Source of the DNA: an uncultured Bifidobacteriaceae bacterium
Lineage (GTDB): Bacteria > Actinomycetota > Acidimicrobiia > IMCC26256 > PALSA-555
DNA: 58,635 nucleotides
Direction: 5' to 3'
Assembly: GCA_964555735.1 (NCBI GenBank)
Contig: CAZKTS010000114.1
Span: 1 to 58,635 of the forward strand
Part shown: positions 969 through 56,673 of the stretch, piece by piece
How the letters are laid out: every line of letters starts with the position of its first letter
How positions within the stretch are numbered: the stretch's first letter is position 1
Translations under genes and position numbers: made by a program
The notes under the pieces: model-generated
What the model was told of the DNA's origin: nothing
The model's input: the letters and a program-made list of their open reading frames with translations, nothing else
The model's database searches: none

Positions 969-2483
969 ATGGCTCTCTCCTTCCGGCGCGTCGCGACATC
1001 GGTCGCGCTCGTCGCCATCACCACGTCCGCGCTCGTCGCGGCCGCACCGAGCGCAACCGCTGACGGCGCGTCCGCGGTCGCGTGGCTCAAGACCCAACAG
1101 CAGCCGAACGGCGGGTTCGAGGTCGCGCAGTTCCCCGGGTTCGAGACCGCCGACGTGGTCGCGGCCCTCGCGGGTGAAGCACAGGCCAACGCATCGTGGA
1201 GCACCGACGAGGCGCTCGACGCGGTGTTCGACACCCAGACCGCCGGCCACGAGAACGCGCTCGACGCGCTCGACGACGACGCCGACGCCGGCATCGGTGC
1301 CGGGCAGGCCGCGAAGCTGATCGTGCTGGTCACCAACCCGCTCGGGCTCGACCCCAACCTCTTCGACCCCGAGTGCGACGGTGGGAGCGGGCAGGACCTC
1401 GAGGCGATCCTCGGGGTGCCCGGGACCAACGGCACCTACGGCATCTCGACCGCGGCCATCAACCAGATCTTCTTCGCGGCGCGGGCCACGAAGGCGCTCG
1501 GAGGCACCGTGGCGGCCGCCACGATCCAGGTGATCCGGGACGCGCAGCGTCCGGACGGGTCGTACGCGTTCAACGGCAACCCCGTCGACGACCCCGACGA
1601 TCCGTTCGACAGCTCGGACGTCGACACGACGGCCGCCGCCGTCATGGCGCTGCGCGCCGGCGGGGTCGCGGCCGACGACGCGGATCTCGCCCCCGCCGTC
1701 GCGTGGCTGCTCGGTCAGCGCAACGGCACCACGGGCGCGTTCCCGGCCTTCGGCAGCGACGACCCCAACGCCACCGCGGTCGCGCTGCTGGCGCTGCACT
1801 CGGTGGATCCGACGACCTACGCCTCGCAGATCAGCGCGGGCCAGGCGTACCTGCTCTCGCAGCAGCAGGGCGACGGCCGCATCGCCAGCCCGAACGACGG
1901 CTTCGGCGTCAACACGTTCGCGACCGCGCAGAGCGTGCAGGCGCTCGAGCTGCCCACCGTGCCCGCGGGCGGAACCGGCGGCCTCGCCGGGTGCCTCGAC
2001 GGGAACGACGACGGTGTGCGCGACGACGACCAGCCCGACGTCGACACCGTGCCGAGCCTGGACGGCGCGGGCTACGTGACCGTGGCCGCGTCGGGCGGCA
2101 CCCTGGCCGACGTGGCCGCGGTCGACCCGGCGACCGTCGCCGAGCCGCCGGTCGGCGTCACATTGCCGTCCGGGCTCGTGAGCTTCCGCCTCGAGGGGCT
2201 CGCCTCGGGCGCGACCGTGACCGTCACGATCACCTTCCACAGTGGGTCGAGCGCCACCTCCTACTTCAAGCTGCTGGCCGACGGCTCGTGGGTCGACTTC
2301 ACCAACCGGGCGTCGTTCTCGGGCAACACGGTCACGCTGACCCTCACCGACGGTGGACCGGGCGACGACGGCCCGGCGGACGGTGTCATCGTCGACCCGG
2401 GCGGACCGGCCGCGGTCGCGGCGCAGGCCGCGCCGGCCGTACCCGGGCAGGTCGACCCGAGCACGCTCTCGTTCACCGGGTGA
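969..2483 (+). CDS. secreted prenyltransferase/squalene-cyclase-repeat (alpha6/alpha6 barrel) protein with choice-of-anchor-U-like C-terminal domain; putative cobalamin-binding surface protein
   Basis: RBS GGAGG then ATG 969. Signal peptide MALSFRRVATSVALVAITTSALVAAAPSATA. QW-like repeats WLKTQQQPNGGF, IRDAQRPDGSY, WLLGQRNGTTGAF, YLLSQQQGDG. C-terminal LTLTDGGPGDDGPADGVIVDPGGP. Ends LSFTG-stop. Confidence 0.75.
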   Translation: MALSFRRVATSVALVAITTSALVAAAPSATADGASAVAWLKTQQQPNGGFEVAQFPGFETADVVAALAGEAQANASWSTDEALDAVFDTQTAGHENALDALDDDADAGIGAGQAAKLIVLVTNPLGLDPNLFDPECDGGSGQDLEAILGVPGTNGTYGISTAAINQIFFAARATKALGGTVAAATIQVIRDAQRPDGSYAFNGNPVDDPDDPFDSSDVDTTAAAVMALRAGGVAADDADLAPAVAWLLGQRNGTTGAFPAFGSDDPNATAVALLALHSVDPTTYASQISAGQAYLLSQQQGDGRIASPNDGFGVNTFATAQSVQALELPTVPAGGTGGLAGCLDGNDDGVRDDDQPDVDTVPSLDGAGYVTVAASGGTLADVAAVDPATVAEPPVGVTLPSGLVSFRLEGLASGATVTVTITFHSGSSATSYFKLLADGSWVDFTNRASFSGNTVTLTLTDGGPGDDGPADGVIVDPGGPAAVAAQAAPAVPGQVDPSTLSFTG

Positions 2484-2487
2484 CGTG

Positions 2488-3393
2488 ATGCGAAGCCGGA
2501 ACGCTCGTCAGCACACGCGCCTCCGCCGAGCGTGGTGGGCACGCGCCGCGGCGACGCTCGCGGTCCTCGTCGCGCTCGTTGCCGTGCCCGCGGTCCGCGA
2601 CGCGCGCCCGGCCGGCGCGGGCGCCAGCCGCGCGGTCGTGATCATCAACGGGAGCGTGCACGTCATCCACTTCGGTGGGTCGGTGTCCGGGCTCCAGGCG
2701 CTGCGGATGGTCGCGGGGGTCGAGACCCTCGGGTTCGGTGGGATCGGCGAGGCGGTGTGTCGCATCAACGGCCAGGGCAACCCGGCCACGCCGAACGAGT
2801 GCCTCGTCGGACCCAATGGCGAGTACTGGGCCTACTACCGCGCCGGTCCGGGCGCGAGCGGTTGGCAGTACTCGAGCCGCGGCGCGGGCGGCACGACCGT
2901 GACCGACGGCTCGGTGGAGGGGTGGCGCTACGGCACCGGGGGCCCGCCGGGGTTCGTGTCGTTCTGCGCCGCAGCCGGGTGCGGCCCGCCGCCGACCGCG
3001 GCCCCGCCCCCGCCGCCTCCGCCACCGGCGACGACGCCGGCCGGCGCCCAGGGGGACGCGGGCACCACCGCGACGACGAAGGCGACCGACGGCTCGGGGT
3101 CGAAGAAGAGCGACAAGAAGAAGGCGGACAAGAGCGACAAGAAGGAGGACGGCGCGGCCGCGTCGTCCGACGACGGCCAGCAGGCGAGCGGTCCGTCCGC
3201 ATCCGGGGACGGCGCCGCAGCTGCTGCCGGTGAGGGTCGGCGCACGTCGGCCTCCGGGCAGGCGAGCGTCGATCCGTCGGCCGACGACGGCGGCTCACCG
3301 CTCCCCGTGATCCTCGTGGTGGTGGTCGTCGCGGCGCTCATCGGCACCGGCCTGTGGCTCCGACGGCGCCGGCAGATGACAATGCCGTCGTGA
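2488..3393 (+). CDS. membrane-anchored DUF4430 / transcobalamin-beta-like protein
   Basis: Signal peptide; VCRING...ECL...YWAYY...WQYSSRGA...DGSVEGWRY motif; Pro/Lys-rich linker; C-terminal TM helix with basic tail (LWLRRRR). Confidence 0.7.
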   Translation: MRSRNARQHTRLRRAWWARAAATLAVLVALVAVPAVRDARPAGAGASRAVVIINGSVHVIHFGGSVSGLQALRMVAGVETLGFGGIGEAVCRINGQGNPATPNECLVGPNGEYWAYYRAGPGASGWQYSSRGAGGTTVTDGSVEGWRYGTGGPPGFVSFCAAAGCGPPPTAAPPPPPPPPATTPAGAQGDAGTTATTKATDGSGSKKSDKKKADKSDKKEDGAAASSDDGQQASGPSASGDGAAAAAGEGRRTSASGQASVDPSADDGGSPLPVILVVVVVAALIGTGLWLRRRRQMTMPS

Positions 3394-3968
3394 CCGACGC
3401 GACCGAACCGGCGACCCCGCCGACCGAGGATCCCCGGCCCAAGCTCCACGCCGCTCCGTCGCTCGTGCTCGTCAACACCGGCGACGGGAAGGGCAAGTCG
3501 ACCGCCGCGTTCGGGGTGGTGCTGCGCGCGGTGGCGCGCGGCTGGCGGGTCGCGGTCGTCCAGTTCCTGAAGTCGGGGGACTGGAAGGTCGGGGAGGAAG
3601 AGGTCGCGCGCAAGCTCGGCGTCGACTGGTGGGCGCTCGGCGAGGGCTTCACGTGGGACTCCGACGACCTGACGAAGGACCAGGCCGTCGCGCGGAAGGC
3701 GTGGGACCAGGCGGCGGCGCACATCCGCGGCGGCGAGTACGGCCTCGTCGTCCTCGACGAGAGCACCTACCTGATGACGTGGGGGTGGATCCCGACCGAC
3801 GAGGTGGTGGCCACGATCCGCGACCGGCCCGAGACCGTCAACGTCATCTGCACCGGGCGCGACGCGCCGGCGGCGCTGATCGACGTGGCCGACACGGTCA
3901 CCGAGATGCGCAGCGTGAAGCATGCGTACGACACCGGCATCGCGGCCAAGCGCGGCATCGACTACTGA
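3390..3968 (+). CDS. cobO: cob(I)alamin/cob(I)yrinate adenosyltransferase (CobO/BtuR)
   Basis: VNTGDGKGKSTAAFG P-loop, VVQFLKS, LVVLDE, CTGRDAP, H-x-Y-x2-G-x2-A-x2-GIDY. GTG start overlaps the upstream stop (GTGA). Confidence 0.95.
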   Translation: MTDATEPATPPTEDPRPKLHAAPSLVLVNTGDGKGKSTAAFGVVLRAVARGWRVAVVQFLKSGDWKVGEEEVARKLGVDWWALGEGFTWDSDDLTKDQAVARKAWDQAAAHIRGGEYGLVVLDESTYLMTWGWIPTDEVVATIRDRPETVNVICTGRDAPAALIDVADTVTEMRSVKHAYDTGIAAKRGIDY

Positions 3969-19392: not shown

Positions 19393-19494
19393 GCCAGTTT
19401 CAAACTCCGCTCGGCCGTACTTGTCCGAGAACCCGATGGTGCCAGATCGTGAAAATTGGGAGTGCTTGTCGCACCCTTGCTGTTACATGGACAC

Positions 19495-22400
19495 GTGCCG
19501 GATGCCGACGACGGGAAGCTCTTCGATCACCTCATCGAGGAGTTTGGTCATGCTGGGCGCAGTTCGGTCGAGTTCCTCAGGACGGCGGCGAGCTACCTCG
19601 AAGCAGCCGACCCCGCCACGCATCCGCGGGTCGCCGAGACCATCGCGTATTGCACGAGAGAAGCTCTCAAGCGGATCCTCGACACCGTTGAAACGCCGCC
19701 CGGGGGGACACTGGGATCCGCCTCGCGAAGCGTTGTCGCCGCTCGTGATCGCTATCTGATCGCGCAAGGACTGCCAGGGGCCGATGAGGCTGGTGCGCTC
19801 GACGATCTCCTTCGTGCCATCGATGAGCTTGAAGAAGGCCGACAACAAGAAGGCGTCCACCAGCGCCGACTGATCGCGGTACTGGTTAACAGAACCGGCG
19901 CGGTACCGCTGTCGGCAGCGTCCAACCCGATCAGCGAGTACCAGGAGCTGATCGAGCATCTCAACCGCATCGTGCATGAGCACGGGAGTCTCGACGAGGT
20001 ACAGGGCGCGTTCGAGCACGCGATCGCACTGATCCGTCGGCTCTTCGCACCTCCCGATGTTCGGATGGCAGAGCTCGACGCGCTCTCCGCTCTCGCAGCG
20101 CCGACGACTGCCGATGCCGACCGGCTACTGAGCTTGGTCTCGGCATCTAGCCACTTGGACTACTTCTTCCGAAACGCTGTGAGCCCGTCCTGGCTGACGC
20201 TGCTGTCGGACAGCGAGGTTCTGACGCCTCCCGATGGGCAAGCCAACTGGCCGGTGTTCCGCGCCGTCGAGAAGTTGGGTCCGACGCACGCCGACGAGGT
20301 TGGTGCCTGGCTAGATCACGCTTACGACAAGTGGGGTTCTTCGGCAACGCGCGCTTGGTATATCGCCCGCGCCGCGATTGACTTGGGACCTGCAGGTCAT
20401 GATGTGATGCTTCGTGCGCTGCGGGATTACCCGACCGAAGGATCGGTCAACTTCGTCGCTGCATGGGCGCTGGAGGAGGTCGATGCCGGTGACCGCGTCG
20501 TGGAGGCCGTCGCAGACCTTGCGCTCAATGCACTTAACGACTTCTCGGTGACGGGACATCTCAAGACGCTCATCGACAAGCTCGGTTCAGGTGTCAGCGC
20601 TGACAATTGGCGCGACAGGGTTCGTCTCCTTGCCTTCAAGATCCGGGCCGTCCCTGAGGATGATCCCGGTCGAAGAATCCGTCTCTACGAACGCGCCGGC
20701 TCGATCGCCGAGCCAGTTGACGCGTATGACGACCGACGGTTCGCTGTCCTTCTCGGGGGCCTAACTGAGGTGTTGACGCGTGCCGTCGGATTGGGTGTGT
20801 CGTTCGACGATCTCCTCGAGTCGATCGCGGATCTCCCGCAGGACGTTCGGGATCGCCTCCGGCCGTGGATCCTGGGCCAAGCGCCGGACGTGAGTTCCTC
20901 ACGGTTGATCTCGGAGGTCGCCGACTTCGTCGCAACTCGGCACCCCTGCGGAGACGACCTCGCACTGATTGACCGCGTTATTGAGGATGCTGAGGAAGTC
21001 GAGTACGTCGGGCCGTGGAGAACCGCGCTCGGTCCCGCACCAACGCCGGAAATGATCGGTCCCGCGCTCGCCGAGCACACGGTTCCTGACGAATGGTTCG
21101 CGCGGCGGGAATGGTCTGCTGTCCTTCCATCGCCTTGCCCGAGCGAATGGGCGAAGGCCGGTGCCCTCATCGCCGCCGCGTACGGGCAGGCAACACGCGA
21201 GGCGCTCGAAAAGCGCTTCGACCGCGTCGAGTTCAGCACCGGCCGAAGTCCGTTTAGGGATGAAGAGTTGAAAGGGCTCACACCACGCGACGCCGCGATC
21301 ACGATCGCGAGGTGGAGGCCTGACCCATCAGACTGGCTCGTTAGCGCTGGCGAACTCGCGCGAACCCTTGAGCAGCTGGTCAAGGAGAATCCCGAGGCGT
21401 GGACCGAGTCACCACTCGACACGGTGAGCAGCCTGCGACACCCGACGTATATCGGTCGCTACTTCCGCGCGCTCTCCCAGGTTGATGGGGGCCTTGCCGC
21501 CCGAGCAGACGACTTGATCGAAGCGGTCGTCTTTTGCCGGAGCCACCCCTGGCAGCCGGAGGTGCTCGGCAGAGATGACTTCGACTACGACGCCGACTGG
21601 CGCCACGTTGATGCTGCAGGAGTCGATCTGATCAAGAAGCTCGCGAATTCGGATGCGGGCTTCGGCGACCGCATCGAACAAGCCTGGGCGGTGGCACTTG
21701 AAAGCGCGGCGGATCGATCAACGAGCTCGTCTCTGGTTTCCGATCGAGATCCGCTGGAAACAGCTTTCAACCGACCGTGCACGAGTGCGCTCGAAGCGGT
21801 CTTCGCCCTCATGGGATACGAGTATCGATCTTCGGGGACAGTGCGAGTGGACGCGCTTGCGCTCCTTGACACTGCACTCAGGCTTCCGGAATGGGATGGA
21901 GCTGAGCACCGGGCCGTGATCGCACCGCGGCTCGGTTTTCTTCTTCACATCGCGCCTGACTGGGTTGCAGAACGACAGGAGTTGCTCTTCGGATCGAGCG
22001 CGCCTGACGGACTGGGGCAGCAGACCGTCGACCTCGCGGTGAAGTGGGGTCGACCCCAGCCATGGGTCTTGGAGCACACCCGGGGTCAGGTCATCGATGC
22101 GGCTGCCCGCGATGTCGAGAACGCCATGAGCACGCTTCTCATCGGGATGCTGTGGGACGTTCCCGGCTACGACGTCGATTCAATCGTTGACCAACTGGTC
22201 AGTCGGCGCAGCGACCTGCTCTCGGCCGCAGGCGAAGCGCTGGGAAGGCTCTTGCGTCATGATGACGTGGAGCCGAAGCATGTTGAGCGGGGGGTCGAGT
22301 TCTGGCGTGGTGTCGTCTCTCGGAATGATCCGGACGCGATGTCCGGCTTTGGGTGGTGGGCCGAGGTGAAAACTCTCGACCGCGAGCGATGGGAGTTGCT

Positions 22401-30892: not shown

Positions 30893-31002
30893 CGCAGTGC
30901 TCGCGTCGCCTGCCGCCCCCATTGCGGTTGACTCGATGACTATCACGCGCTTGCCCGGATGGGTGCCGGACGTCCCACCCACTGCATAACGTGGGGACCA
31001 GC

Positions 31003-40214: not shown

Positions 40215-40763
40215 TCACGCCGTGTCGGCGGTCACGATCCCGTCGCACTCTGGGGCCGCGTCGAGCGCGGCGATGAGCTCCGGGTCGCGCAGGCGCGTGA
40301 ACGGATCGTCGAGGTTCCGTCCCAGCTCCTGGAGTCCGGCCTCGAAGGTCGAAGCCTTCGCCTCGAACACGGGCTTCGACGGGTCGGCCGCTCGGAGGTC
40401 ACGCGCGAGCCGGCGGACCTCGCGGATGGCGTCCCGCAGGTAGCGGTCGACGCCCCGAGCGGCGTTGCCACCCTCCGGGGGGTTGAGCTCGGCGAGTGAC
40501 GATCGCGCCTCGCGGAGCGCGCCGAGGTAGGCCTTGGTGTTGGCGAGGGCGCCGGTCTGGAACTCGTCCGGCGAACCCAGGTCGAGTGTGGCGTGCGCCG
40601 TGACGAACGCCTCTTCCGCGGTCCGCACGTCGACGAGCGACGAGCACACCGCCGTGGCCCACTCCTCGTTGGAGACGTCACGTGCCGCGGCGGGCAGCGC
40701 CATGATGCCGAGTGCGGTCGCGCCGACGAGCAACGTCCCGAGTGCGCGCCTCGTGTTCCTCAT
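40215..40763 (-). CDS. secreted helical hypothetical protein
   Basis: Signal peptide MRNTRRALGTLLVGATALGIMALPAAA; Cys near each end (AVC...PEC). Confidence 0.75.
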   Translation of the reverse strand: MRNTRRALGTLLVGATALGIMALPAAARDVSNEEWATAVCSSLVDVRTAEEAFVTAHATLDLGSPDEFQTGALANTKAYLGALREARSSLAELNPPEGGNAARGVDRYLRDAIREVRRLARDLRAADPSKPVFEAKASTFEAGLQELGRNLDDPFTRLRDPELIAALDAAPECDGIVTADTA

Positions 40764-41896
40764 GACCCACCTCCGACGACCGTGCTCCGCTCGAGGTTCA
40801 CCAGCGCGCTCCCGATGGGCGGTGCGCCGTCGAACCGGGCGATGGTCGAATCATTGGGTGGCGGGGGCGACGAGGTCGGCACGCTCGGCCCACGCGTCGT
40901 CGTCGTCACCGGCGCCGCGGTCGTCGGCGTCGTCGCACCGGTGGTCGTGGTCCCCGGACCGCTCGTGGTCGTCGTCTGTCCCGCGCTCGTGGTGCTCGTC
41001 GTGGAGGTCGTGGTCGTGTCGACGGTGTCCTCCGACGGCGTGCCTGCCTGCGGGTCGAAGAACGTGATGATCACGTAGCCGTTGCCGTGCTGGTGACTGT
41101 CGATGAACTCGACGTCCGTCGCGCTCCCGGAGGTGCACGACGAGCCGCCGCCTCCACCCGCACCGGGCTCCGCGTCGGCCGGGTTCTCCGGCTGGTTGTC
41201 GCCGCCGCCGCCGCCGTTGCAGCCGCCGCCACCGCTGCCGCCGCCGCCGTAGTCGTAGAGCCCGTAGTTGTCGCGCTCGTAGTTCGGCGCGTCGCCGCCG
41301 CGGCGTCCGCCCTGGTTGGCGCCGCCGCCACCCGGCCCGGCGTAGCAGCAGCCGTAGCTGCCGGCACCGGCGCTGCGGCCGCCGTGCCCGCCGGTGCCGC
41401 CGATGCCCTCGCCACCGTCGCCGCCGCCGGCGCCGCCGCCGCCGCCTCCGGTCACTTCCCAACCGGGCCCGGTCACGAAGCTCGCGCCGCCGCCGGTCGC
41501 GCCGTCGTAGCCGCCGGGGTCGCTGTCCTGGGAGTTTCCAGCCTTGCCGAGTGCGCGGTGGCCGCCGGATCCGTTGCTGCCGTCGCCCCAGCCGTCCTGG
41601 CAGCCGACGACGATGCGGAGGTAGTCGCCTTCCTTCACCGGCACGGTCGCCTCGACCTTGCCGCCGAGGCCCGCGCCACCGCTCGAGTCACCGCCGTTGG
41701 CGTGGTTGCCCTGCGCGCCGGCGAGGCGGATGGTGGCCATCGTCCACCCTTCGGGGACGACCAGGCCGCGGACCTGGTGGGAGCAGCTGTACTTGACCTG
41801 CTTCTGGGTGCCGGTCTGGGCGTGGCCCGGTACGGCCAACGCGCCCCCGGTTGCCATCGCGATGGTCGCGACGACGACGGCGAGACGTCGTTTCAC
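40760..41896 (-). CDS. secreted glycine-rich (ALK/LTK-like) domain protein with Thr/Pro stalk
   Basis: GTG start, signal peptide, TIRLAGAQG, VPVKEGDYLRIVVG, GGGGGGAGG, GNGYVIITF, then TTTSTT linker. Confidence 0.75.
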   Translation of the reverse strand: MKRRLAVVVATIAMATGGALAVPGHAQTGTQKQVKYSCSHQVRGLVVPEGWTMATIRLAGAQGNHANGGDSSGGAGLGGKVEATVPVKEGDYLRIVVGCQDGWGDGSNGSGGHRALGKAGNSQDSDPGGYDGATGGGASFVTGPGWEVTGGGGGGAGGGDGGEGIGGTGGHGGRSAGAGSYGCCYAGPGGGGANQGGRRGGDAPNYERDNYGLYDYGGGGSGGGGCNGGGGGDNQPENPADAEPGAGGGGGSSCTSGSATDVEFIDSHQHGNGYVIITFFDPQAGTPSEDTVDTTTTSTTSTTSAGQTTTTSGPGTTTTGATTPTTAAPVTTTTRGPSVPTSSPPPPNDSTIARFDGAPPIGSALVNLERSTVVGGGS

Positions 41897-42074
41897 CTCG
41901 TGCTCCTGGGTGTCGGTCCCGCGCCGCGGTCGACACCTTATCGTGGTCACGCGACCACGGAGAGCGCGCAAGGCCCTGCGCGCTGGCCGCACGGAGTTCG
42001 AGCCGTAGTGACGCCGAGCTACGAGCTCGGGGACGACCGGTGCGTTGCGCGGCGGTCTCGGCCGCCGCGCTCGA

Positions 42075-43192: not shown

Positions 43193-44113
43193 TCAGCCGG
43201 TGAAGCGCAGCTCGACCGAAGGCAGGCTGGCGGCGGGAGAAGCGCACCCCGGATCCGGGGTGTAGGTGATGATGACCTCGCCCCCACCGTCGTTGACCCC
43301 GTCGCTCATGCCGCTGCCGTCGGGCGTGAAGCCGGAGCCACCTCCACCACCTGCGCCGCCATCGCCGCCGGCGCTGGTGCCACCCCCGCCTCCGCCACCG
43401 AGGACACCGCCGCCGCCGCCACCGCCGCCTTCGCCGGCGTTCGTCGCAGGTCCACCCGCCCCGCCCTGGCCGGTACCGCCGGGGAGGCCGTTCGCCGGGG
43501 CGACTTCGCCAGTCCCGCCGCCACCGCCGTTCCCGCCGGAGAACCCGCCCTGCGCGCTCGCGGCCTGGTTCGATCCACCGTCGGCACCGTCGCCGCCTCC
43601 GCCACCACCGTTGCCGGGGGTCTGGCCGTCACGGCCGCCGCCGCCAGCGCCGCCACCCGCCGCCACGAGGAACACGCTCCCACGGCGGACGTCTGACATC
43701 CCGCCGCCGCCGCCACCACCGCCCGCGACGCCGGTGCTGTCGCTGCCACCGGCACCGCCGCCGTTCACGCCCGCGCTGCCGCCGGCGGCAGCGGAACCGT
43801 TGCCACCCTGGCCTCCGACCGACACCGTCAGGCTCTCGCCGGGAGTGGTCGCGACCGTGCCCGTGGCGCTGCCTCCCAGCCCGCCAGTGCCACCCGGGTC
43901 CACGGTGGGCGTGGCCCCGTCGCCGCCCTCGGCACCGAGCGCGGTGATCGTGATCCCGCACACGTCGGCAGGCACCAGGAAGTCGACGGTGCCGGGATCG
44001 TCGAAGACGACCTCTTGCTCAGCGCCGGGCAGTCCGGCGCCGGCGCCGGCGGGATACCAAGCAAGGCAGATCCCTGCGGCGAGCGAGCCGATCACAACGA
44101 GGCGCTTGAACAT
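43193..44113 (-). CDS. secreted glycine-rich (ALK/LTK-like) domain protein
   Basis: Signal peptide, ITALGAEGG, TPGESLTVSVGGQGG, LVAAGGGAGGG, EVIITYT; ends LRFTG-stop. Confidence 0.8.
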   Translation of the reverse strand: MFKRLVVIGSLAAGICLAWYPAGAGAGLPGAEQEVVFDDPGTVDFLVPADVCGITITALGAEGGDGATPTVDPGGTGGLGGSATGTVATTPGESLTVSVGGQGGNGSAAAGGSAGVNGGGAGGSDSTGVAGGGGGGGGMSDVRRGSVFLVAAGGGAGGGGRDGQTPGNGGGGGGDGADGGSNQAASAQGGFSGGNGGGGGTGEVAPANGLPGGTGQGGAGGPATNAGEGGGGGGGGVLGGGGGGGTSAGGDGGAGGGGGSGFTPDGSGMSDGVNDGGGEVIITYTPDPGCASPAASLPSVELRFTG

Positions 44114-44222
44114 GGCGGGCGACGCTAGCGCGGGCCCGCACCTGCCTCACTGCTGAACGGAACCTGCCGCGGGGGTCGCAACGGCCTGCTTGACTGACAC
44201 CCGCTCGAAGGGGGATGGGGCC

Positions 44223-46937
44223 GTGGTCGAGCTGCCGACGGGAACGGTCACGTTCCTGTTCACTGATCTCGAGGGTTCGACGCGTCTGTGGGAAAAGCAT
44301 CCCGACGCGATGAAGGGCGCGCTCGCACGGCACGACGAGATCGTGCGCACGGCGATCGAAGCGAACGATGGTCTCGTCGTGAAGACGACGGGCGACGGCT
44401 TCCACGCCGCGTTCGCGAGGACCCACGAGGCCGTCGAAGCCGCCGTCGGCGCCCAGCTCGCGCTCGCCGAAGAACCCTGGGCGCATACCGGACCGCTGAC
44501 GGTCCGGATGGGCGTGCACACCTGCGAGGCTGAGGCGCGCGACGGCGACTACTACGGCACCGGTGTGAATCGTGCGGCCCGACTGATGGGCGTCGCGCAC
44601 GGCGGCCAGATTCTCGTCTCGAGCGCCACGAGCGAGCTCGTGCGGGATCGGTCAGTGGAGCTCGTCGACCTCGGCGAGCACCGGTTGCGCGATCTCGGTC
44701 ATCCGGAGCGGATCTTCCAGGTGCTGCATCCGGCACTGGAGCGCTCGTTCCCGCCGTTGCTGACCGTCGACACGGTCCCGACGAACCTGCCGACCGTGCG
44801 CACCGAGCTGATTGGTCGCAATGCCGACGTGGACGCGCTCTCGGAGCTCGTCACCCGCGAGCGGCTGGTCACGCTGACCGGTGTCGGTGGCGTCGGCAAG
44901 ACCCGGCTCGCGCTCGGTGTGGCTGCGGCGGTCGCCGCGGACTTCGCGGACGGGTGCTGGTTCGTGGAGCTCGCGCCGGTTGCGGGTGATGAGGAGGTGA
45001 CCAAGGTCGCCGCGGCAGCGATGCGGGCGCCGACGATCGATCTCGACGGATTCGCCGCCTACCTCGGTGATCGTCGCGTGCTGCTGGTGCTCGACAACTG
45101 CGAGCACGTCCTCGACGGCGCCGCCGATCTGGTGGATGCGGTGCTCGAATCGGGTCTTGATGTCCACGTGCTGGTGACGAGCCGTGAGCCGCTAGGGCTC
45201 GACGGTGAGCAGGTGCGACGGGTGCAGTCGCTCGGTGTCCCCGACGAGCACGCCGATGCGGAGTCCGCCCGCTCGACTGCCGCGGTGCGGCTCTTCACCG
45301 AGCGCGCCATCGCCGCGTCCGACGGCTTCGCGGTCGACGACGGCAACGTCGCCGCGGTCACCGAGATCTGCCGTCATCTCGACGGCATCCCGCTCGCGAT
45401 CGAGCTCGCCGCAGCGCGGGTGCGAGCGATGCCGCCGGAGGAGATCGCCCAGCGACTCGACGAGCGCTTCCGGCTGCTCGCCGGTGGGTCACGTCGAGCG
45501 CAGGAGCGCCACCGGACGCTGCTGGCAACCGTGGCCTGGTCGCACGATCTGCTCACCGACGACGAGAAGGCGGTGTTCCGGCGACTCGCCGTGTTCCCCG
45601 CGTCGTTCGCCCTGCCGGCGGCGGAGGTGGTCGCGGGCGGCGGCGGGGTCGACGTCGTGGAGTGCGTCCTGCACCTGGTCGACCGGTCGCTCGTGGTCTA
45701 CGAGCCCGAGACCGGTCGCTACCGCATGCTGGAGACGCTCCGGCAGTTCGGCGCCGACCGGCTCGCCGATGCGGGCGAGACCGAGCCGACCCGGGAGCGC
45801 CACGCCGGGCATTTCCTCGACCTCGTCGAGCGAGTCGCGCCCGAGTTCGACGACGCGCGCCTCCCCGCGGCCGAGGCGCTGCTCGTGCTCGAGCTCGAGA
45901 ACCTTCGTGCGGCCGCCGACTGGTGCGCCGAGCATGACCGGTGGGTCGAGCTCGCCGCCATGGGCGAGCGGCTGTGGGTCTTCGTGAACAGCGCGGGCGC
46001 GGCCGACGGTGTCGCGTGGTATCAGCAGGTGATCGATCACGGCACTGCGCTCGACGAGCAGGTCCTCGCCGATGCACTCGGCGTACTCGCCTACCTGCAG
46101 GTGATCACCCTCGGGAACTACGACATCGCAACCGAGCTCAGCACGCGGAGCCGCGAGCTGGCCGAGCAGCATCAGCTCGCCGAGCCGCAGACTGCCTGGC
46201 TGGCGACGGCGTTCGCCGCGATGTTCACGGGTGACTACCGCGTCGCACTCGACGCCGGCGCTCGGTCGCTCGCCGCAGCCGAGGCTCGGGGCGACGAGCC
46301 GGTTGCCGTCACTGCCTTGTGCGTCCACGGGACACCGCTCGCCGGGCTCGGCGACTTCGACCGCGCGGTGGAGGTCGTGGCGGAGGCCGTGCGGCGCGCG
46401 GAGCGGCTCGGTCAACCCACACTCATCGGTGCGTCGCTGGTCACGGCGGCGTCGCTGCACTTCATGGATCCCCGCGGACCCGACTTCGCCGCGTGCCTCG
46501 ACAGGGTGTCCAGCTATCCGATCGCGGGCGGTGGCGCCGCGAACGACATGTGGGTGGCGATCACCCGCGCGACTGCGGAGGTCGGCGTGCGAGCGCCGGG
46601 TGCCGTCGAGACCGTCGTCGATGCGATCCGCGCGTGTGACCGCCTGCAAGCGCGTCATGCGCTCGACCTGAGCCTGCGCCTCCTGGCGTTCGAAGCCGCC
46701 GCCGCCGGCTTGGAGCAGGCGGCGAGGGAGCTCGTCGGCTACTCGGAGGCACATCTGCGTGCACACCGGATGGAGAACCCCCAGCAGGCGTGGGTGCAGG
46801 CGCGCCTCAAGGAGGTCCTCGACGAGCTCCCGGGACCGTCGGCCGGACCGGTGCGCACTCGCAGCGAGATCATGCGCGTCGTCACCGAGATCGAGACCGC
46901 GCTCACACGCGACACCGCCGAGGCCTCTGATGCGTGA
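44223..46937 (+). CDS. class III nucleotide cyclase - STAND ATPase - TPR protein (paralogue 1)
   Basis: FLFTDLEGST, VKTTGDGF, DYYGTGVNRAARL; GVGGVGKTRL, LLVLDNCEH, LDGIPLAIELAA, YRMLETLRQF; no C-terminal LuxR HTH seen. Confidence 0.9.
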   Translation: MVELPTGTVTFLFTDLEGSTRLWEKHPDAMKGALARHDEIVRTAIEANDGLVVKTTGDGFHAAFARTHEAVEAAVGAQLALAEEPWAHTGPLTVRMGVHTCEAEARDGDYYGTGVNRAARLMGVAHGGQILVSSATSELVRDRSVELVDLGEHRLRDLGHPERIFQVLHPALERSFPPLLTVDTVPTNLPTVRTELIGRNADVDALSELVTRERLVTLTGVGGVGKTRLALGVAAAVAADFADGCWFVELAPVAGDEEVTKVAAAAMRAPTIDLDGFAAYLGDRRVLLVLDNCEHVLDGAADLVDAVLESGLDVHVLVTSREPLGLDGEQVRRVQSLGVPDEHADAESARSTAAVRLFTERAIAASDGFAVDDGNVAAVTEICRHLDGIPLAIELAAARVRAMPPEEIAQRLDERFRLLAGGSRRAQERHRTLLATVAWSHDLLTDDEKAVFRRLAVFPASFALPAAEVVAGGGGVDVVECVLHLVDRSLVVYEPETGRYRMLETLRQFGADRLADAGETEPTRERHAGHFLDLVERVAPEFDDARLPAAEALLVLELENLRAAADWCAEHDRWVELAAMGERLWVFVNSAGAADGVAWYQQVIDHGTALDEQVLADALGVLAYLQVITLGNYDIATELSTRSRELAEQHQLAEPQTAWLATAFAAMFTGDYRVALDAGARSLAAAEARGDEPVAVTALCVHGTPLAGLGDFDRAVEVVAEAVRRAERLGQPTLIGASLVTAASLHFMDPRGPDFAACLDRVSSYPIAGGGAANDMWVAITRATAEVGVRAPGAVETVVDAIRACDRLQARHALDLSLRLLAFEAAAAGLEQAARELVGYSEAHLRAHRMENPQQAWVQARLKEVLDELPGPSAGPVRTRSEIMRVVTEIETALTRDTAEASDA

Positions 46938-46961: not shown

Positions 46962-47393
46962 CTACCCGTCGAGCGGATGCTCCCACCGGAGCCCCGGGAA
47001 GCGTGCGAACGACCGGTCGCAGGTGTACCAGGTCGTTCCCTGCTCGATCGCGAGCGCCGCGAGGTATGCATCGGGCACGGTGTTGCCGCGGGCTTCTGTC
47101 GTCGTGCAGAGCTGTTCGAAGATCTGCCAGTGGCGCGGTCCGGGAGCGATGGTGACTGCGGCGGGCGCTGTGCGCAGCGCATCCGCGAACTCGAGCGCGA
47201 CACTCAGCGGGGTCGGGTCGCGGAAGACCCGCGGGTGCGTGACCACCCGGATGAACCCCGAGAGGACGACGTCGGTGAGCCCGAGCGGTTCGTCGTCGGT
47301 GCGGGCAGCCTCGAGCCACTCGAAGTGCTCGACGTGCCGGGGAGACTCGGGGCGGTGCGCGTACACGAGGACGTTGACGTCAACGCCGCGCAT
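46962..47393 (-). CDS. vapC: VapC PIN-domain toxin
   Basis: VDVNVLVYA, VLSGFIRVVTHPRVF, VPDAYLAALA, TCDRSFARF. Confidence 0.92.
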   Translation of the reverse strand: MRGVDVNVLVYAHRPESPRHVEHFEWLEAARTDDEPLGLTDVVLSGFIRVVTHPRVFRDPTPLSVALEFADALRTAPAAVTIAPGPRHWQIFEQLCTTTEARGNTVPDAYLAALAIEQGTTWYTCDRSFARFPGLRWEHPLDG

Positions 47394-47640
47394 CGAGCTC
47401 GACGTCCTCGTCCATCGAGTCGCGCAACGCGGCATTGTTCGCGAGGTCGATGCCCGGGAGCACACCCGATCCGCCGAAGGTCGGCAGTGGCGGGAGCGCG
47501 GCTCCGGACGCGGTCGTCGACTCGGTCATCGCGCGCCGCAGGGCGTCCTCGATGACCTCGGCGACGGTGCGCCCCGAGCGCGCGGCGCGCGCCTTCACCG
47601 TGGCGTACAGGTCGTCATCGATCCGCACGGTCGTCCTCAC
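47380..47640 (-). CDS. vapB: VapB RHH antitoxin
   Basis: MRTTVRIDDDLYATVKARAARSGRTVAEVIEDALR; overlaps the vapC start. Confidence 0.9.
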   Translation of the reverse strand: MRTTVRIDDDLYATVKARAARSGRTVAEVIEDALRRAMTESTTASGAALPPLPTFGGSGVLPGIDLANNAALRDSMDEDVELDARR

Positions 47641-47732
47641 TGCCGGCATCTTAGCATCAGAGGCCGACATCTTGATGCCCCGCCGGGCACCTTCGTGGTT
47701 CCCTCGACAGCCCTGGCTGAGCGCGGTGACCG

Positions 47733-50471
47733 ATGACCGAGCTGCCGACCGGAACCGTCACGTTCCTGTTCACGGATCTCGAGGGCTCGACGCGGCTCTG
47801 GCAGGAGCATCCGGCGGCGATGAAGCCCGCGCTTGCTCGGCACGACGAGATCCTGCGCGGTGCCATCGAGTCGCACCGCGGACACGTGGTGAAGACGACG
47901 GGCGACGGGTTCCACGCCGCGTTCGCCGCAGCCCACGACGCGGTCGAAGCGGCGATCGCCGGCCAGATCGCGATGGCAGGCGACCCGTGGCCGGGCACCG
48001 GTCCGCTCGCGGTGCGCATGGGCATCCACAGCGGTCCGGCCGACCTGCGTGAGGGGGACTACTACGGCACCGCGGTGAACCGTGCCGCTCGACTGATGTC
48101 GGCGGCCCACGGCGGCCAGATCGTCGTGTCGCTCGCCACCGAGGAGCTCGTGCAGGACCACGGCGTCGAGCTGCTCGATCTCGGCGAGCATGCGCTGCGC
48201 GACCTCGCCCGCCCCGAGCGGGTGTTCCAGGTGGTCCATCCGGACCTTCCGCGCGAGTTCGCCGTGATCAGCTCGCTCGAAGCCTTCCCCGGCAACCTCC
48301 CCGCGCAGGTCACGTCGTTCGTCGGTCGTGACGCGGAGCTCGCTGCGGTCGCCGCCGCGTTGGGGTCGTCACGGTTGGTCACGCTCACGGGCGTCGGCGG
48401 TGTCGGCAAGACGCGCCTGTCGCTGCAGGTCGCCGCCGAGATGCTGCCGCGCTTCGAACGCGGCGCCTGGTTCTGCGAGCTCGCGGCCGCGGTCGACGAC
48501 GAGTCGCTCGTGCAGGTCGTCGCGACGACCCTCGGCGTCACGCCGCTCACGGGCATGACGCTGGAGCAGAGCACGCTCGAGTACCTCCGCGCGAAGTCGC
48601 AGCTCCTCGTGTTCGACAACTGCGAGCACCTCCTCGACGAGGTCAGTCGCCTCGCCGAGGCGATCCTGCGGTCCTGCCCCGAGGTGCGGATCCTCGCCTC
48701 GAGTCGGGAGGGCCTCGGTGTGGCCGGCGAGCAGATGGTCGCCGTGCGGTCCCTGCCGATGCCCGATCCCGACCAGGGCTTCGACGCCGTGGTGCAGAAC
48801 GAGTCGGTGCTGCTGTTCACCGAGCGGGCCGCGGCGGCGCGCTCGGGGTTCGCGTTGGACCCTGCGAATGCGGCTGCGGTCGTGGAGATCTGTCGCCGCC
48901 TCGACGGGATCCCGCTCGCGATCGAGCTCGCCGCGGCGCGTGTCACCGCCATGAACCCCAGCGACATCGCAGCACACCTCGACGAGCGCTTTCGCCTCCT
49001 CACCGGCGCCCGCCGGACCGGGATCGAACGGCATCAGACGCTCCGGGCCACGGTCGACTGGTCATACTCTCTGCTCGAGCCGACCGAGCAAGCCGTCTTC
49101 GACCGCCTCGGCGTGTTCTCCGGCGACTTCGACGCCGAGGCGGCGCAGGCGGTCGCGTCGGGCGATGGTGTCGAGGCGTGGGACGTGCTCGACGCGCTCT
49201 CCGGTCTCGTCGCGAAGTCGATGGTGAACATCGACGACGCCGCGGAGGGCGAGGCCCGCTACCGCATGCTCGAGACGCTGCGCACCTACGCGCGGGACCG
49301 GCTCGACGAGCTCGGTGAGACCGATCAGTGGCGACGGCGCCACGCGCAGCACTACGCGGACCTCGCCGAGATCGTCGGTCCCCAATTGCGGTCGCGCGAC
49401 GAGTTCGCGGCGCGGCGACGCTTCCGGACCGAGCTCGACAACCTGCGAGCTGCCGTGACGTGGGCGCTGGACGCGGACGATCCGAGCGCGCAGGAGCTGG
49501 GCGTGCGGATCGTGCTGGCCTTCGGCTACGAGGTCACCACCGATCGCCGGGCCAACACGGGGATCTGGGCCGAGCACGCGCTGCGGCGGGTGGAGACGTG
49601 GCAACCGTCCAGCCGGGTCGGCGTGCTCTCGATCGCGGCGATGAGCGCCTGCGCGCGTGCGGACGTCCCGACCGCATCCGAGTGGGTCGAGGAAGCGTTT
49701 GGCATCGGCATCTCGGTCGACACCCCGGTCGCGCTCATGCCGTGGATGGCGCGCGCGAACGTCTTGCTCGCCAACGGCGGGTTCGACGATGCGTTGGAGT
49801 GCATGGCGGCCGCCATCGAGTTCTTCGACGCCGGTGGCGCCGCGTTCCAGCGCGCCAACGTCCGGGGCGCATCCGCGCACTACCGGATAGCGTGTGGCGA
49901 CCTCGCGGGTGCACTCGCGGAGGCCGAGGAGTCCCTCGTGATCTCCCGTGAGATCGGTAACCCGACGCAGCTCGCGATCGCGCTCGGTGCTCTCGGCGAT
50001 GCCCTGATCTTCTCCGATCCGCGCCGAGCGCTGGACGCGCTCGAAGAGAGCCTGGCGCTGACGGACGCGGGAGCGAGCGATGTGGTTCGCCCGATCGTGC
50101 TGATGCACGTCGCGACGCTGCGCGCAGAGTTCGGCGATGCCCGCGGCACCCTGGAATGTCTCCGCGACGGCATCGAGCGAGCCGCCGAGTGGGGCGATCG
50201 CTCGGCGTTCGGCGCGATCGGGTTCGGCGTGGTGCCCCTCGTGCAGATCGGTCGACCCGAGCTCGCATTGACGATCAGTGCGGTATCGACGTTCACGAGT
50301 CCGCTCGGTGGCTATTGGATCGATGCTCAGGAGACCGCCCTTGCCCGGGCGCGAGGAGCAGTCGGTGCCGAGCGCGCCGACGGGCTGAAGGCGCGCATCG
50401 AGGCGATGTCGTACGACGAGATGGTCGACCACCTCCAAGCCGAGCTGGATCGCGCGATCACCTCGGCGTGA
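47733..50471 (+). CDS. class III nucleotide cyclase - STAND ATPase - TPR protein (paralogue 2)
   Basis: Same motifs as 44223-46937: FTDLEGST, VKTTGDGF, DYYGTAVNRAARL, GVGGVGKTRL, FDNCEH. Confidence 0.92.
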   Translation: MTELPTGTVTFLFTDLEGSTRLWQEHPAAMKPALARHDEILRGAIESHRGHVVKTTGDGFHAAFAAAHDAVEAAIAGQIAMAGDPWPGTGPLAVRMGIHSGPADLREGDYYGTAVNRAARLMSAAHGGQIVVSLATEELVQDHGVELLDLGEHALRDLARPERVFQVVHPDLPREFAVISSLEAFPGNLPAQVTSFVGRDAELAAVAAALGSSRLVTLTGVGGVGKTRLSLQVAAEMLPRFERGAWFCELAAAVDDESLVQVVATTLGVTPLTGMTLEQSTLEYLRAKSQLLVFDNCEHLLDEVSRLAEAILRSCPEVRILASSREGLGVAGEQMVAVRSLPMPDPDQGFDAVVQNESVLLFTERAAAARSGFALDPANAAAVVEICRRLDGIPLAIELAAARVTAMNPSDIAAHLDERFRLLTGARRTGIERHQTLRATVDWSYSLLEPTEQAVFDRLGVFSGDFDAEAAQAVASGDGVEAWDVLDALSGLVAKSMVNIDDAAEGEARYRMLETLRTYARDRLDELGETDQWRRRHAQHYADLAEIVGPQLRSRDEFAARRRFRTELDNLRAAVTWALDADDPSAQELGVRIVLAFGYEVTTDRRANTGIWAEHALRRVETWQPSSRVGVLSIAAMSACARADVPTASEWVEEAFGIGISVDTPVALMPWMARANVLLANGGFDDALECMAAAIEFFDAGGAAFQRANVRGASAHYRIACGDLAGALAEAEESLVISREIGNPTQLAIALGALGDALIFSDPRRALDALEESLALTDAGASDVVRPIVLMHVATLRAEFGDARGTLECLRDGIERAAEWGDRSAFGAIGFGVVPLVQIGRPELALTISAVSTFTSPLGGYWIDAQETALARARGAVGAERADGLKARIEAMSYDEMVDHLQAELDRAITSA

Positions 50472-53808: not shown

Positions 53809-53858
53809 GGTGGCGACGCTATCCGTCGGACCCGCACCGCCCGCCCGGCACGCGCACC

Positions 53859-54464: not shown

Positions 54465-54496
54465 GGGTCGACCGGAGGATAGTGAACGGCTCGGTG

Positions 54497-54563: not shown

Positions 54564-54621
54564 GGATCGGCTGCGACGCTAGGGTGCCCCCTCGATCTGG
54601 GTGCGAGCAGGGGGCAGGGGC

Positions 54622-55515
54622 ATGGTGCGGCGTGCGTTGGCGGCTGTGGTGGCGACCGCAGCGATCGGATTCGGTGCCGTGGGCCCGGCCGGAGCGGCAC
54701 CCGTCACCTTGTTCGAGTCGTCGACGCCGGGTCCGAGCTCGGTGACGATCCCGCCGGGCGTCTGCTCGGTTGCGGTCGTCGCGGTCGGCGGTGGTGGCAG
54801 CGGATCTGACCTCTTGACCGATGGGCTCTCGGCCGGTGGTGGCCAAGGCGCGCGTGTCACGACGACGTTGGCGGTCACGCCGGGACGGGTGCTGTCGCTG
54901 TTCGTCGGTGCTGGCGGCACGACGACGAGCCTTGCCTACGGCTCCGGCGGCGGGAGCACGTCGATCGACCCGAGCGATCCGATCCACCGTGTGATCGCCG
55001 GCGGTGGTGGAGGTGGCGGGTTCAGCTCGGCGAAGGGAGGCGATGGCGGCGTCTTCCCCGACGGACGCGGCGGGGACGGATCGTCGACCGGCGGTCCGTC
55101 CCCAACCGGCGGCACGGGTGGTGGCAATGGCCTCGGTGGCGCCGGCGGCACCGGGACGGGCGGCAACGGCGTGCCGGGTGGCAACGGCAACGGCGGTCCT
55201 GGCGGGGGCGCGAGCGGAGGTACCGGCTTTGCCGGTGGCGGGACCGGCGCGACCGCGGGATCGGCTCCGGGTGGCGGCGGAGGGTTCGGCGGCGGCGGTA
55301 GCGGCGGGTACGTGAGCGGCCCCATCGACGCCTACGCGGGGAGCGGCGCGGGCGGGAGCACGGGCCCCGTGGGCGTCACGACGTTCTCGACCGCTGGGAA
55401 CGCCGGCCCCGCGCAGGGCAACGGCGGCCCGGGGTCGCTGCTCATCACCTACGACGCGGCGGTGAACGCCTGCGCGGCGGCCGCGGTCGTGGTCGAACCC
55501 CGCTTCACGGGCTGA
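54622..55515 (+). CDS. secreted glycine-rich (ALK/LTK-like) domain protein
   Basis: Signal peptide, VVAVGGGG, VTPGRVLSLFVGAGG, VIAGGGGGGG, SLLITYD; ends EPRFTG-stop. Confidence 0.8.
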   Translation: MVRRALAAVVATAAIGFGAVGPAGAAPVTLFESSTPGPSSVTIPPGVCSVAVVAVGGGGSGSDLLTDGLSAGGGQGARVTTTLAVTPGRVLSLFVGAGGTTTSLAYGSGGGSTSIDPSDPIHRVIAGGGGGGGFSSAKGGDGGVFPDGRGGDGSSTGGPSPTGGTGGGNGLGGAGGTGTGGNGVPGGNGNGGPGGGASGGTGFAGGGTGATAGSAPGGGGGFGGGGSGGYVSGPIDAYAGSGAGGSTGPVGVTTFSTAGNAGPAQGNGGPGSLLITYDAAVNACAAAAVVVEPRFTG

Positions 55516-55596
55516 CGGTCTTGCTCCTCGCCGCGCGGGACTGCTGAGTCCGTCGCCGCCCCACTGGTAGCGTCCGGCGATGCTGGGGAGCCAGAC

Positions 55597-56673
55597 GTGA
55601 TCCGCCGGCGCGCCCTGCCGCGCAACGTCGTGAGGGTGCTCGCTGTTGGCGGGTTGGTCGCCGGTTCGCTGACGTGGGGAACCGCAGCGCCGGTCGTCGC
55701 CGCGGGCGGGTCGTGCACCGGCACCACGACGGTCACCTGCACGTTCTCGTTCACGTTCGCTCCGGACACCTTCACCGTGCCCGCCAACGTCACGTCCCTG
55801 ACCATCGAGATGTTCGGTGCGCAGGGTGGTGCCGGCTCGTCCTGCTCCAACACCGCGTGCTCGAACGGCGGCACGGGCGGGACGGGCGGGAACGGCGCGC
55901 ACGTCGTCGGCACGGTGCCGGTGACGCCCGGCCAGGTGCTGACCGTCTTCGTCGCGGGCGCCGGCATCGACGCCACTCGCACCACGGTGGGGGTCGGCGG
56001 CTTCGGGTACGGCACCAGCGGCAACGGTGGCGTCGACGGCACGGGAGGAACCGCCGCCGGAACCGGAGGTGGCGGTGGCGGCGCGTCCGCGGTCGTGGAC
56101 GGCGTGACCCCGCTGGTGGTCGCGGGCGGTGGTGGCGGCGGCGGGGGAGCCGGAACCACGACGGTGAGCGTGCAGATCGGGTACGCCGGTGGCAACGGTG
56201 GAACCAGCGCCGTGACGGGCCAGTCCCCGCCGGGTCCGGGGGGCCCGCCGGATCAGTGCCCGCCTGCCGGTGGTGGTGGCGGGGGCTCGGCGACGACGCC
56301 CGGCGCGGCCGGAGCGGGCGGCGGCGCGTTCGTCGGATGCAACACCGGGGCGGCGGGCGGAGGCGGCGGCGCGGCCCTGGGCGGCAGCGGTGCCGTCAAC
56401 CCGACCGCGTGTGGCGCCGGCGGTGGCGGGGGCGGTGGCGGCATCTTCGGCGGCGGCGCCGGCGGCGCCGGGGGCGCCATCGTGCAGAACTTCCTCTGCT
56501 ACCCGGGTGGTGGCGGAGGCGGCGGCGGCAGCCGCGTGCCCGCCAACGGGACCCTCGTCGACGGCGTTCGAGCGGGCGCAGGCGAGGTCGTCATCACGTA
56601 CACGTTCGATCCGGTGCCACCGGCGGGGCCGGCGGCGGACGCGATCCTTCGCTCGCCGAACTTCGCCGGCTGA
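55597..56673 (+). CDS. secreted glycine-rich (ALK/LTK-like) domain protein
   Basis: Signal peptide, FTVPANVTSLTIEMFGAQGG, VTPGQVLTVFVAG, VVAGGGGGGG, EVVITYT; ends SPNFAG-stop. Confidence 0.8.
   Translation: MIRRRALPRNVVRVLAVGGLVAGSLTWGTAAPVVAAGGSCTGTTTVTCTFSFTFAPDTFTVPANVTSLTIEMFGAQGGAGSSCSNTACSNGGTGGTGGNGAHVVGTVPVTPGQVLTVFVAGAGIDATRTTVGVGGFGYGTSGNGGVDGTGGTAAGTGGGGGGASAVVDGVTPLVVAGGGGGGGGAGTTTVSVQIGYAGGNGGTSAVTGQSPPGPGGPPDQCPPAGGGGGGSATTPGAAGAGGGAFVGCNTGAAGGGGGAALGGSGAVNPTACGAGGGGGGGGIFGGGAGGAGGAIVQNFLCYPGGGGGGGGSRVPANGTLVDGVRAGAGEVVITYTFDPVPPAGPAADAILRSPNFAG

Follow-up and report, generated by a model that had tools for sequence, protein, structure and literature searches.

A Modular C-Terminal F-[T/A]-G Tag without a Transmembrane Anchor on Secreted Proteins of Actinomycetota, and Its Probable Coupling to YkuD L,D-Transpeptidases in Thermoleophilia

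Contig CAZKTS010000114.1 of an uncultured bacterium of the class Acidimicrobiia (assembly GCA_964555735.1) was analyzed over its whole stretch of 58,635 nucleotides (the window), in which four genes for secreted proteins end in F-[T/A]-G immediately ahead of the stop codon. These endings form a modular C-terminal sorting tag that closes a flexible linker and has no transmembrane (TM) segment. We are close to certain that this tag is genuine and modular, and we rate it as a new kind of sorting signal, robust yet unannotated. It occupies the place where relatives of the tagged proteins carry LPxTG plus a TM helix or other sorting signals, and in Thermoleophilia it is probably coupled to a clade of YkuD-family L,D-transpeptidases (LDTs). 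The best explanation, which we hold with modest confidence, is a modular tag coupled to a dedicated YkuD subfamily via acyl-donor chemistry at the Thr-Gly bond.

Four tagged proteins and the form of the tag

The four tagged genes lie at separate loci (Table 1). A sequence-only reading of the window had drawn attention to them, and the open reading frames (ORFs) and their endings were recovered at the same positions, with protein 2 encoded on the minus strand, which that reading had left unstated. As described there, each protein has an N-terminal signal peptide and a tail rich in Pro, Ala, and Val; the stop codon is TGA in all four genes. In protein 1, the signal peptide precedes an alpha-alpha toroid of the prenyltransferase-like type, to which a choice-of-anchor U beta-sandwich and then a disordered tail of 21 aa are joined. 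Residues 394 to 481 of its 504 residues match the NCBIfam model NF041766 (choice_anch_U) with 90.7 bits (cutoff, 32; E value, 7.9e-26), and this domain sits just ahead of the C-terminal anchor region, in keeping with membership of the choice-of-anchor group. The toroid (residues 30 to 330) and the sandwich (residues 358 to 483) are modeled with confidence by AlphaFold2 from 27 orthologues, and the pLDDT is mostly below 50 over the tail (residues 484 to 504). Proteins 2 to 4 contain a glycine-rich domain, so that, as had been claimed, one of the four has a fold unrelated to that of the other three. Protein 3, which ends in the canonical form PRFTG, starts with ATG (a GTG upstream at 54601 is likewise open) and matches Pfam Gly_rich_2 (PF21722) with 41.7 bits (cutoff, 24.3). 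Proteins 2 and 4 are paralogues of protein 3 and were placed in the glycine-rich family by alignment alone, and homologues of the glycine-rich proteins have precomputed matches to PF12810 (ALK_LTK_GRD). A fifth glycine-rich paralogue in the window is untagged and has no Pfam match, and tagged and untagged paralogues thus coexist within 15 kb.

TABLE 1 Coordinates of tagged genes and other features of the window
Feature	Position	Strand	Tag codons (stop codon)	Description
Tagged protein 1	969-2483	+	2466-2480 (2481-2483)	504-aa translation ending in VDPSTLSFTG
Context gene	2485-3393	+		Signal peptide, C-terminal TM helix, RRRR tail; start 1 to 4 nt past the protein 1 stop
1072-aa ORF	19456-22674			No function assigned; in mobile element
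DUF4268 protein	22711-23703	-		In mobile element
Tyrosine integrase	23762-24916	-		In mobile element
TrwC relaxase	25632-28169			With AAA_30 helicase; in mobile element
N6_Mtase	28707-30305			Type I restriction-modification set 1
HsdS	30302-30892			Type I restriction-modification set 1
HsdR	30991-33822			Type I restriction-modification set 2
HsdS	33819-35153			Type I restriction-modification set 2
HsdM	35150-36631			Type I restriction-modification set 2
Fifth glycine-rich paralogue	40760-41950	-		Untagged; Thr-rich linker; ends in STVVGGGS
Tagged protein 2	43193-44113	-	43196-43210 (43193-43195)	306 aa; tail DPGCASPAASLPSVE-L-R-F-T-G, ending in LPSVELRFTG
First approximately 915-aa paralogue	44190-46937			Paralogous to 47733-50471
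PIN-domain toxin	46962-47435	-		Between the approximately 915-aa paralogues
Putative antitoxin	47380-47649	-		By position only; small ORF upstream of, and overlapping, the toxin
Second approximately 915-aa paralogue	47733-50471			Paralogous to 44190-46937
Tagged protein 3	54622-55515	+	55498-55512	297 aa; tail NACAAAAVVVE-P-R-F-T-G
Tagged protein 4	55597-56673	+	56656-56670	358 aa; tail PAADAILRS-P-N-F-A-G

The consensus of the tag is hydrophobic-hydrophobic-x-P-x-F-T-G-COOH, with position frequencies that are alike in three independently gathered sets. Hydrophobic residues occupy positions -8 and -7, Pro (in some cases Leu) position -5, Phe (sometimes Leu) position -3, Thr (sometimes Ala) position -2, and Gly position -1, and the variable position -4 is most commonly Arg, with Thr, Gln, Ser, Asn, Ala, Asp, Pro, and Lys also found. 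In a set of 270 family proteins, 57 copies of the motif are at the terminus, and no copy that stops short of it lies in the last 30 aa; a further 44 copies, elsewhere in these proteins, correspond to the background rate. The strictly terminal position suggests that the signal includes the free carboxylate of the last Gly. No model in Pfam or NCBIfam (June 2026) matched the tails of 25 to 47 aa even at an E value of ≤10, and no description of a PxFTG tag was found in the literature searched, which agrees with the earlier view that this is not a named signal. A conserved Cys located 6 to 20 aa ahead of the tag was considered as a further part of the signal and rejected, being taken as a disulfide of the domain: glycine-rich proteins that have this Cys also have an N-terminal one (VPxxVCS), protein 4 has neither of these two residues that its paralogues have in common, and the ferritin-type and toroid-plus-U-type tagged proteins have no Cys at this place.

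The endings might be thought a coincidence or an artifact, arising from paralogy, from a DNA repeat over the gene ends, or from a recoded stop codon that hides a TM segment, since three of the four window proteins are paralogous and chance PRFTG ends are found on some cytoplasmic proteins, such as enolase. However, when the DNA past the four stops was read in frame and in the other frames, neither a hydrophobic helix nor a basic tail was found, as the sequence-only reading had maintained; the only hydrophobic stretch, 3' of protein 1, belongs to the signal peptide of the gene that follows, and stop codon read-through was rejected. A repeat or terminator was rejected as well, because the flanks are unrelated and the codons of the motif differ. 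In six frames of the window, TTY-RCN-GGN-stop occurs 4 times, compared with 0.56 times expected from shuffles, and all 4 occurrences are the ends of these genes. The motif is also present on unrelated domain families and is kept as precisely the last residues in dozens of clusters with less than 50% identity. Coincidence or artifact is thus left with a negligible probability, and we regard this reading as already effectively refuted.

Distribution of the tag and its exchange with sortase signals

The closest named relatives of protein 1 are found in metagenome-assembled genomes (MAGs) of Acidimicrobiia and share 67% identity with it, which by itself makes an origin of the window in this class probable. 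All 26 of its 26 full-length orthologues (42% to 70% identity) end in variants of the tag, including LTFTG, LDFTG, PRLTG, PNLTG, PTFTG, PSFTG, PRFAG, and LRFTG. With the C-terminal 148 aa of protein 1 as the query, distant choice-of-anchor U proteins with TM-type anchors were retrieved and no close relatives. Among the paralogues that contain only the toroid, about 70 stop directly past the domain, about 17 continue into a linker and PxFTG-stop, and 6 have a classical sortase signal, made up of LPxTG or LSRTG, a TM helix, and an RRR tail. The tag therefore fills the slot of a cell wall sorting signal in this family. This alternation, and the fact that the tag follows two different choice-of-anchor domains, support the proposal that it serves in export or anchoring.

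The glycine-rich family was analyzed by an exhaustive profile search, which gave 13,878 matches, and the best 150 representatives, pairwise at most 50% identical, were examined. P-x-F-[TA]-G endings are present on 35 of these 150, and the 35 comprise nearly all of the high-GC forms of about 300 to 540 aa with a signal peptide. Some of the tagged members hold extra domains between the glycine-rich domain and the tag. Judged by eye, the long Bacteroidota-type members seem to end in C-terminal domains like those of the type IX secretion system (T9SS), and a few others in TM-plus-basic anchors. A word-indexed search with protein 3 was swamped by poly-Gly words and returned a single tagged homologue (P0035).

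To look beyond these two families, one genome per species of GTDB was scanned for CCS-CGS-TTC-ACS-GGS-TGA, which encodes PRFTG-stop, and at least 120 loci were obtained. Among the matches listed, about 41 are long ORFs with a signal peptide and a high G+C content at third codon positions, and all of these belong to Solirubrobacterales/Thermoleophilaceae, Acidimicrobiia, or unresolved Actinomycetota MAGs; the remaining loci consist of short ORFs that are open by chance and of cytoplasmic proteins from unrelated families. The lineage specificity suggested from the window was thus upheld, as the real matches listed are all from Actinomycetota MAGs (Thermoleophilia, Acidimicrobiia, or unresolved class), and the tag is confined to signal-peptide proteins. 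The proposed excess over a shuffled background was found within the window, and the proteome-wide count was realized in part, for the PRFTG-TGA form.

The domains of the tagged proteins include DUF7507/DUF11/SpaA-like repeats, Vgb_lyase propellers, Ice_binding, a Tat-type Ferritin_2, a lipase, Big_13, Big_3_5, beta-helix plus PASTA, and a choice-of-anchor Q domain, the last represented by a match of 82.6 bits to NF041518 (choice_anch_Q) in locus L116. In total, at least 10 unrelated domain types, exported by the Sec or Tat pathway, bear the tag, so that its occurrence is not merely a matter of paralogy. Tandem tagged pairs are frequent, with two DUF7507-type genes in each of L084 (252-3744) and L008 (5471-7805) and two small proteins ending in PRFTG and PTFTG in L092 (6056-7296); no adjoining LDT is present in these three 8-kb pieces. 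The enolase of several actinobacteria (L017, L064, L078, and L079) ends in AFPRFTG and is cytoplasmic, without a signal peptide. Enolase is a well-known "moonlighting" surface protein, and its PRFTG ending is probably a coincidence.

The adjoining YkuD family and the proposed ligation

All predicted neighbors of tagged genes were clustered, and the sole recurrent untagged family that emerged is a secreted protein of 230 to 300 aa whose gene directly follows the tagged gene, in the same orientation, in 10 loci of Thermoleophilia. Two more loci, L056 and L098, each have two tandem copies, which gives a total of 12 genome loci. In L042 and L125, the TGA of the tagged gene overlaps the start codon of the neighbor (GTGATG or TGATG). 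The neighbors tested all match Pfam YkuD (PF03734), with E values of 1e-15 to 1e-22, and the nearest solved structure is that of Bacillus subtilis YkuD (1y7m). They contain an invariant GIHGT...SHGC[IV]R, in which the catalytic His and Cys are present, and keep an Arg at Cys+2, a residue that is retained by the transpeptidase-type YkuD members (PMC8263019). An insertion specific to the clade, L[TS][DE]WP[GA]GG (for example, LTDWPGGG), lies just ahead of the catalytic GIHGT (alignment A2; L042:6379-7074 and relatives), and the N-terminal domain of about 130 aa (...RPNGRTGWV...) has no sequence match in the PDB; both are candidate substrate-recognition elements. NCBIfam contains no model specific for this subfamily.

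In a reciprocal test, 80 metagenome loci were picked by similarity to the enzyme alone, 60 of which had a readable ORF upstream on the same strand. This ORF ends in P-x-[FLY]-[TA]-G-stop in 34 of the 60 loci, and one more locus, in the order tagged gene, LDT, LDT, brings the number to 35 of 60; elsewhere in the enzyme-anchored loci, about 0.4% of ORFs end in the tag. The upstream partners comprise a large group with a common C-terminal Ig-like domain and at least five other families. Near-miss endings were also observed upstream of the enzyme (VPRFPG and VVRFTR, among L186, L187, and L180) and may be decayed tags or alternative specificities. The earlier suggestion of a possible transpeptidase tag is sustained in that a transpeptidase is coupled to the motif in the genomes, but the family of this enzyme is YkuD and not sortase.

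The Thr-Gly pair is common to the tag, LPxTG, and LAxTG, and proteins 1 and 2 read LSFTG and LRFTG, so that a degenerate sortase signal has to be considered, in which a class E/F-type sortase would cut the T-G of [LP]-x-F-T-G without a TM retention segment. The switching of the toroid family between LPxTG plus TM and the tag speaks for such a signal. However, the conserved Pro is at position -5 and not at position -4, Phe stands in the "x" position, and the TM helix and basic tail that define sortase signals are absent. In addition, no sortase was found among the window ORFs scanned, as had been stated before, nor in about 200 related loci, nor in any Pfam-annotated neighborhood, nor in a scan of all loci for the TLxTC signature, and it is a YkuD gene that adjoins the tag in the 35 loci. 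The coexistence of full LPxTG-plus-TM signals in related proteins further argues for two separate machineries, and we consider a degenerate sortase signal very unlikely.

The usual target of LDTs is the bond that joins the L-center of the diamino acid to a terminal D-Ala whose carboxylate is free. In the mechanism that we propose for the tag as the most economical one, the catalytic Cys of the YkuD enzyme would attack the Thr-Gly bond, and the terminal Gly, with its free carboxylate, would mimic the terminal D-Ala of a tetrapeptide stem and leave. The resulting Thr-acyl-enzyme (thioester) would then be resolved by the free amine of the stem-peptide diamino acid, and the protein would become amide-linked to peptidoglycan via its C-terminal Thr, as after the action of a sortase. 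A donor role is proposed because the conserved positions of the tag (P, F, T/A, and G) contain no amine nucleophile, which leaves the protein unable to serve as acceptor in the way that Lpp does. The stem-mimic donor model would also explain why no membrane anchor is needed and why the tag must be the very last residues. YkuD enzymes also accept stems with a terminal Gly (PMC8263019). The donor mechanism itself has about an even chance of being right. In its widest form, the proposal is that Thermoleophilia and Acidimicrobiia possess an undescribed sorting system, in which a dedicated YkuD clade would be the sortase analogue, the tag would act as a stem mimic from which Gly is expelled, and dozens of unrelated secreted proteins per genome would be covalently anchored to the wall; this is a real possibility, although we lean slightly toward doubting it.

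Several points weigh against these proposals. Cleavage of the tagged proteins and their attachment to the wall are steps that we infer from sequence, the link between tag and enzyme is judged from the adjacency of genes within loci, and we know of no LDT that uses a protein C terminus as its acyl donor. Most of the LDT-adjoining partners have the same C-terminal Ig-like domain in common, so that part of the adjacency may come from a single gene pair that has expanded as a module, and recognition may extend beyond the five residues of the tag. Furthermore, tblastn detected no YkuD homologue in the window, and no YkuD gene was found beside the tagged genes in 10 Acidimicrobiia genome loci (8 kb) or in 8 further contigs around tagged glycine-rich or toroid genes. 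The link to the enzyme for the window therefore rests on motif identity, and coupling in its own lineage would be an extrapolation from the identical motif in Thermoleophilia.

The lack of an adjoining enzyme in the Acidimicrobiia loci examined would suit a noncovalent role for the tag, as a C-terminal recognition peptide that is bound by a PDZ-type tail-specific protease or chaperone or that docks to an envelope receptor or S-layer, and PDZ ligands typically show just such a strict dependence on the extreme C terminus and its free carboxylate. Such ligands, however, usually end in a hydrophobic residue, whereas the tag ends in Gly, and genes for PDZ or S41 proteins are not recurrent near tagged genes. 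A noncovalent role would also leave unexplained the translationally coupled YkuD genes and the swap of the tag for covalent LPxTG anchors in one family. We therefore judge it unlikely, if slightly less so than a degenerate sortase signal.

The synteny evidence for the donor model applies identically to other chemistries of the same enzyme, which might trim the Gly as a carboxypeptidase, polymerize fibers by joining the tag to a Lys of another subunit in the manner of pilus sortases, or use an acceptor other than peptidoglycan. YkuD hydrolases exist, one of them being DpaA, a meso-diaminopimelic acid-Gly carboxypeptidase (PMC8263019), and many of the partners have Ig-like, SpaA-like, or DUF11 adhesin folds, which are typical of polymerized surface fibers. 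Against these chemistries, the Arg at Cys+2 that marks the transpeptidase-type members is retained, and the tag is also present on enzymes and ferritin-like proteins, which are unlikely fiber subunits. We rate the chance that the tag is coupled to YkuD through one of these other reactions as fairly low, and donor chemistry at the Thr-Gly bond remains the reading that we prefer.

If the preferred reading is correct, the tag would define a third covalent route of wall display, alongside sortases and the protein-as-acceptor reaction of the Lpp type, and the enzyme would be the first LDT with a protein as its acyl donor. A role could also be assigned to some of the large and mostly unassigned YkuD family in Actinomycetota, and the surface proteomes of two soil and aquatic classes that are abundant but poorly cultured would become predictable from sequence. 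The tag and its enzyme would form a minimal pair for ligation, five residues long on the substrate side and independent of the membrane, with possible use in protein engineering, and these lineages would be predicted to lose surface proteins when treated with LDT inhibitors of the carbapenem type. Should the mechanism prove wrong, a hidden Markov model or a pattern for the tag would still be worth including in annotation pipelines.

Genomic surroundings and relation to known systems

The neighborhood of protein 1 (positions 3 to 3968) is conserved in the syntenic loci L205 and L207 and is of a cobalamin/cobalt type, with CobO at 3390 to 3968 of the window and divergently transcribed genes of an energy-coupling factor (ECF) transporter in L205 and L207. 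Tethered to the wall, the tagged toroid protein may serve the ECF transporter as a component that binds corrinoids or metal. The gene that follows protein 1 encodes neither a sortase nor an LDT; its window copy has no Pfam match, and its counterpart in L207 bears a faint match to Pfam SCO2322. Between the tagged loci, positions 19400 to 40000 are occupied by an integrated mobile element with a G+C content of 64%, compared with 72%; both type I restriction-modification sets of Table 1 belong to it. The first of the two paralogous proteins of about 915 aa, the only one scanned, contains adenylate/guanylate-cyclase and TPR domains.

Like the tag, the LPXTG signal of sortases (TIGR01167 type; LAxTG for class E in Actinobacteria) is a C-terminal pentapeptide with T-G that follows a Pro/Ala/Thr-rich linker on Sec-exported surface proteins. 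Both are found on the same kinds of domain (DUF11, SpaA-like, and choice-of-anchor) and are interchangeable in one family, and the predicted product of the tag, with the Thr carboxyl amide-linked to the stem amine, would be identical. Sortase pentapeptides (LPXTG, LAXTG, and NPQTN) have Pro or Ala at position 2. The register of the tag is different, however, with Pro at -5 and Phe at -3 so that only T-G is common, and the TM helix and positively charged tail of the sortase signal have no counterpart in the tag, whose Gly is the last residue and whose associated gene is of the YkuD family. The PEP-CTERM, PGF-CTERM, GlyGly-CTERM, and MYXO-CTERM signals, which are handled by exosortase, archaeosortase, or rhombosortase, are likewise lineage specific, occur on many unrelated secreted proteins, and have choice-of-anchor domains ahead of them; homologues of choice-of-anchor U elsewhere end in such tripartite signals of the exosortase class. 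In these signals, the motif is combined with a TM helix and a cluster of basic residues, and polytopic membrane enzymes serve them, whereas the tag has nothing of the kind and matches no curated Pfam or NCBIfam model. The C-terminal domain of T9SS cargo in Bacteroidota is a folded beta-sandwich of about 80 to 100 aa, in contrast to the tag tail of Actinomycetota, which is a low-confidence linker of 10 to 25 aa.

The plant asparaginyl endopeptidase ligases (butelase and OaAEP) are Cys transpeptidases that cut short tails without a TM segment, N-HV or NGL, and release one or two residues, but they differ from the tag-adjoining enzyme in fold, kingdom, and purpose, which is the cyclization of peptides. 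Lpp-type tethering, which includes LdtA, LdtB, and LdtC of Escherichia coli and the LDT-tethered outer membrane proteins of Alphaproteobacteria and Coxiella, likewise employs a YkuD Cys transpeptidase dedicated to the linkage of protein to peptidoglycan. The determinant of linkage in Lpp is at the extreme C terminus of the protein (PMC8263019). The YkuD signature of these enzymes, with His, Cys, and an Arg at Cys+2, was found in the loci related to the window; the window itself yielded no YkuD gene of this kind. The hosts of Lpp-type systems are proteobacteria, and those of the tag are Actinomycetota. In the Lpp-type reaction, the acyl group comes from peptidoglycan and the amine from the protein, where it belongs to the side chain of a C-terminal Lys or to an N-terminal Gly or Ala. 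In contrast, the tag has no conserved Lys or other amine and ends in a Gly that resembles a leaving group, so that the roles of protein and peptidoglycan would be reversed.

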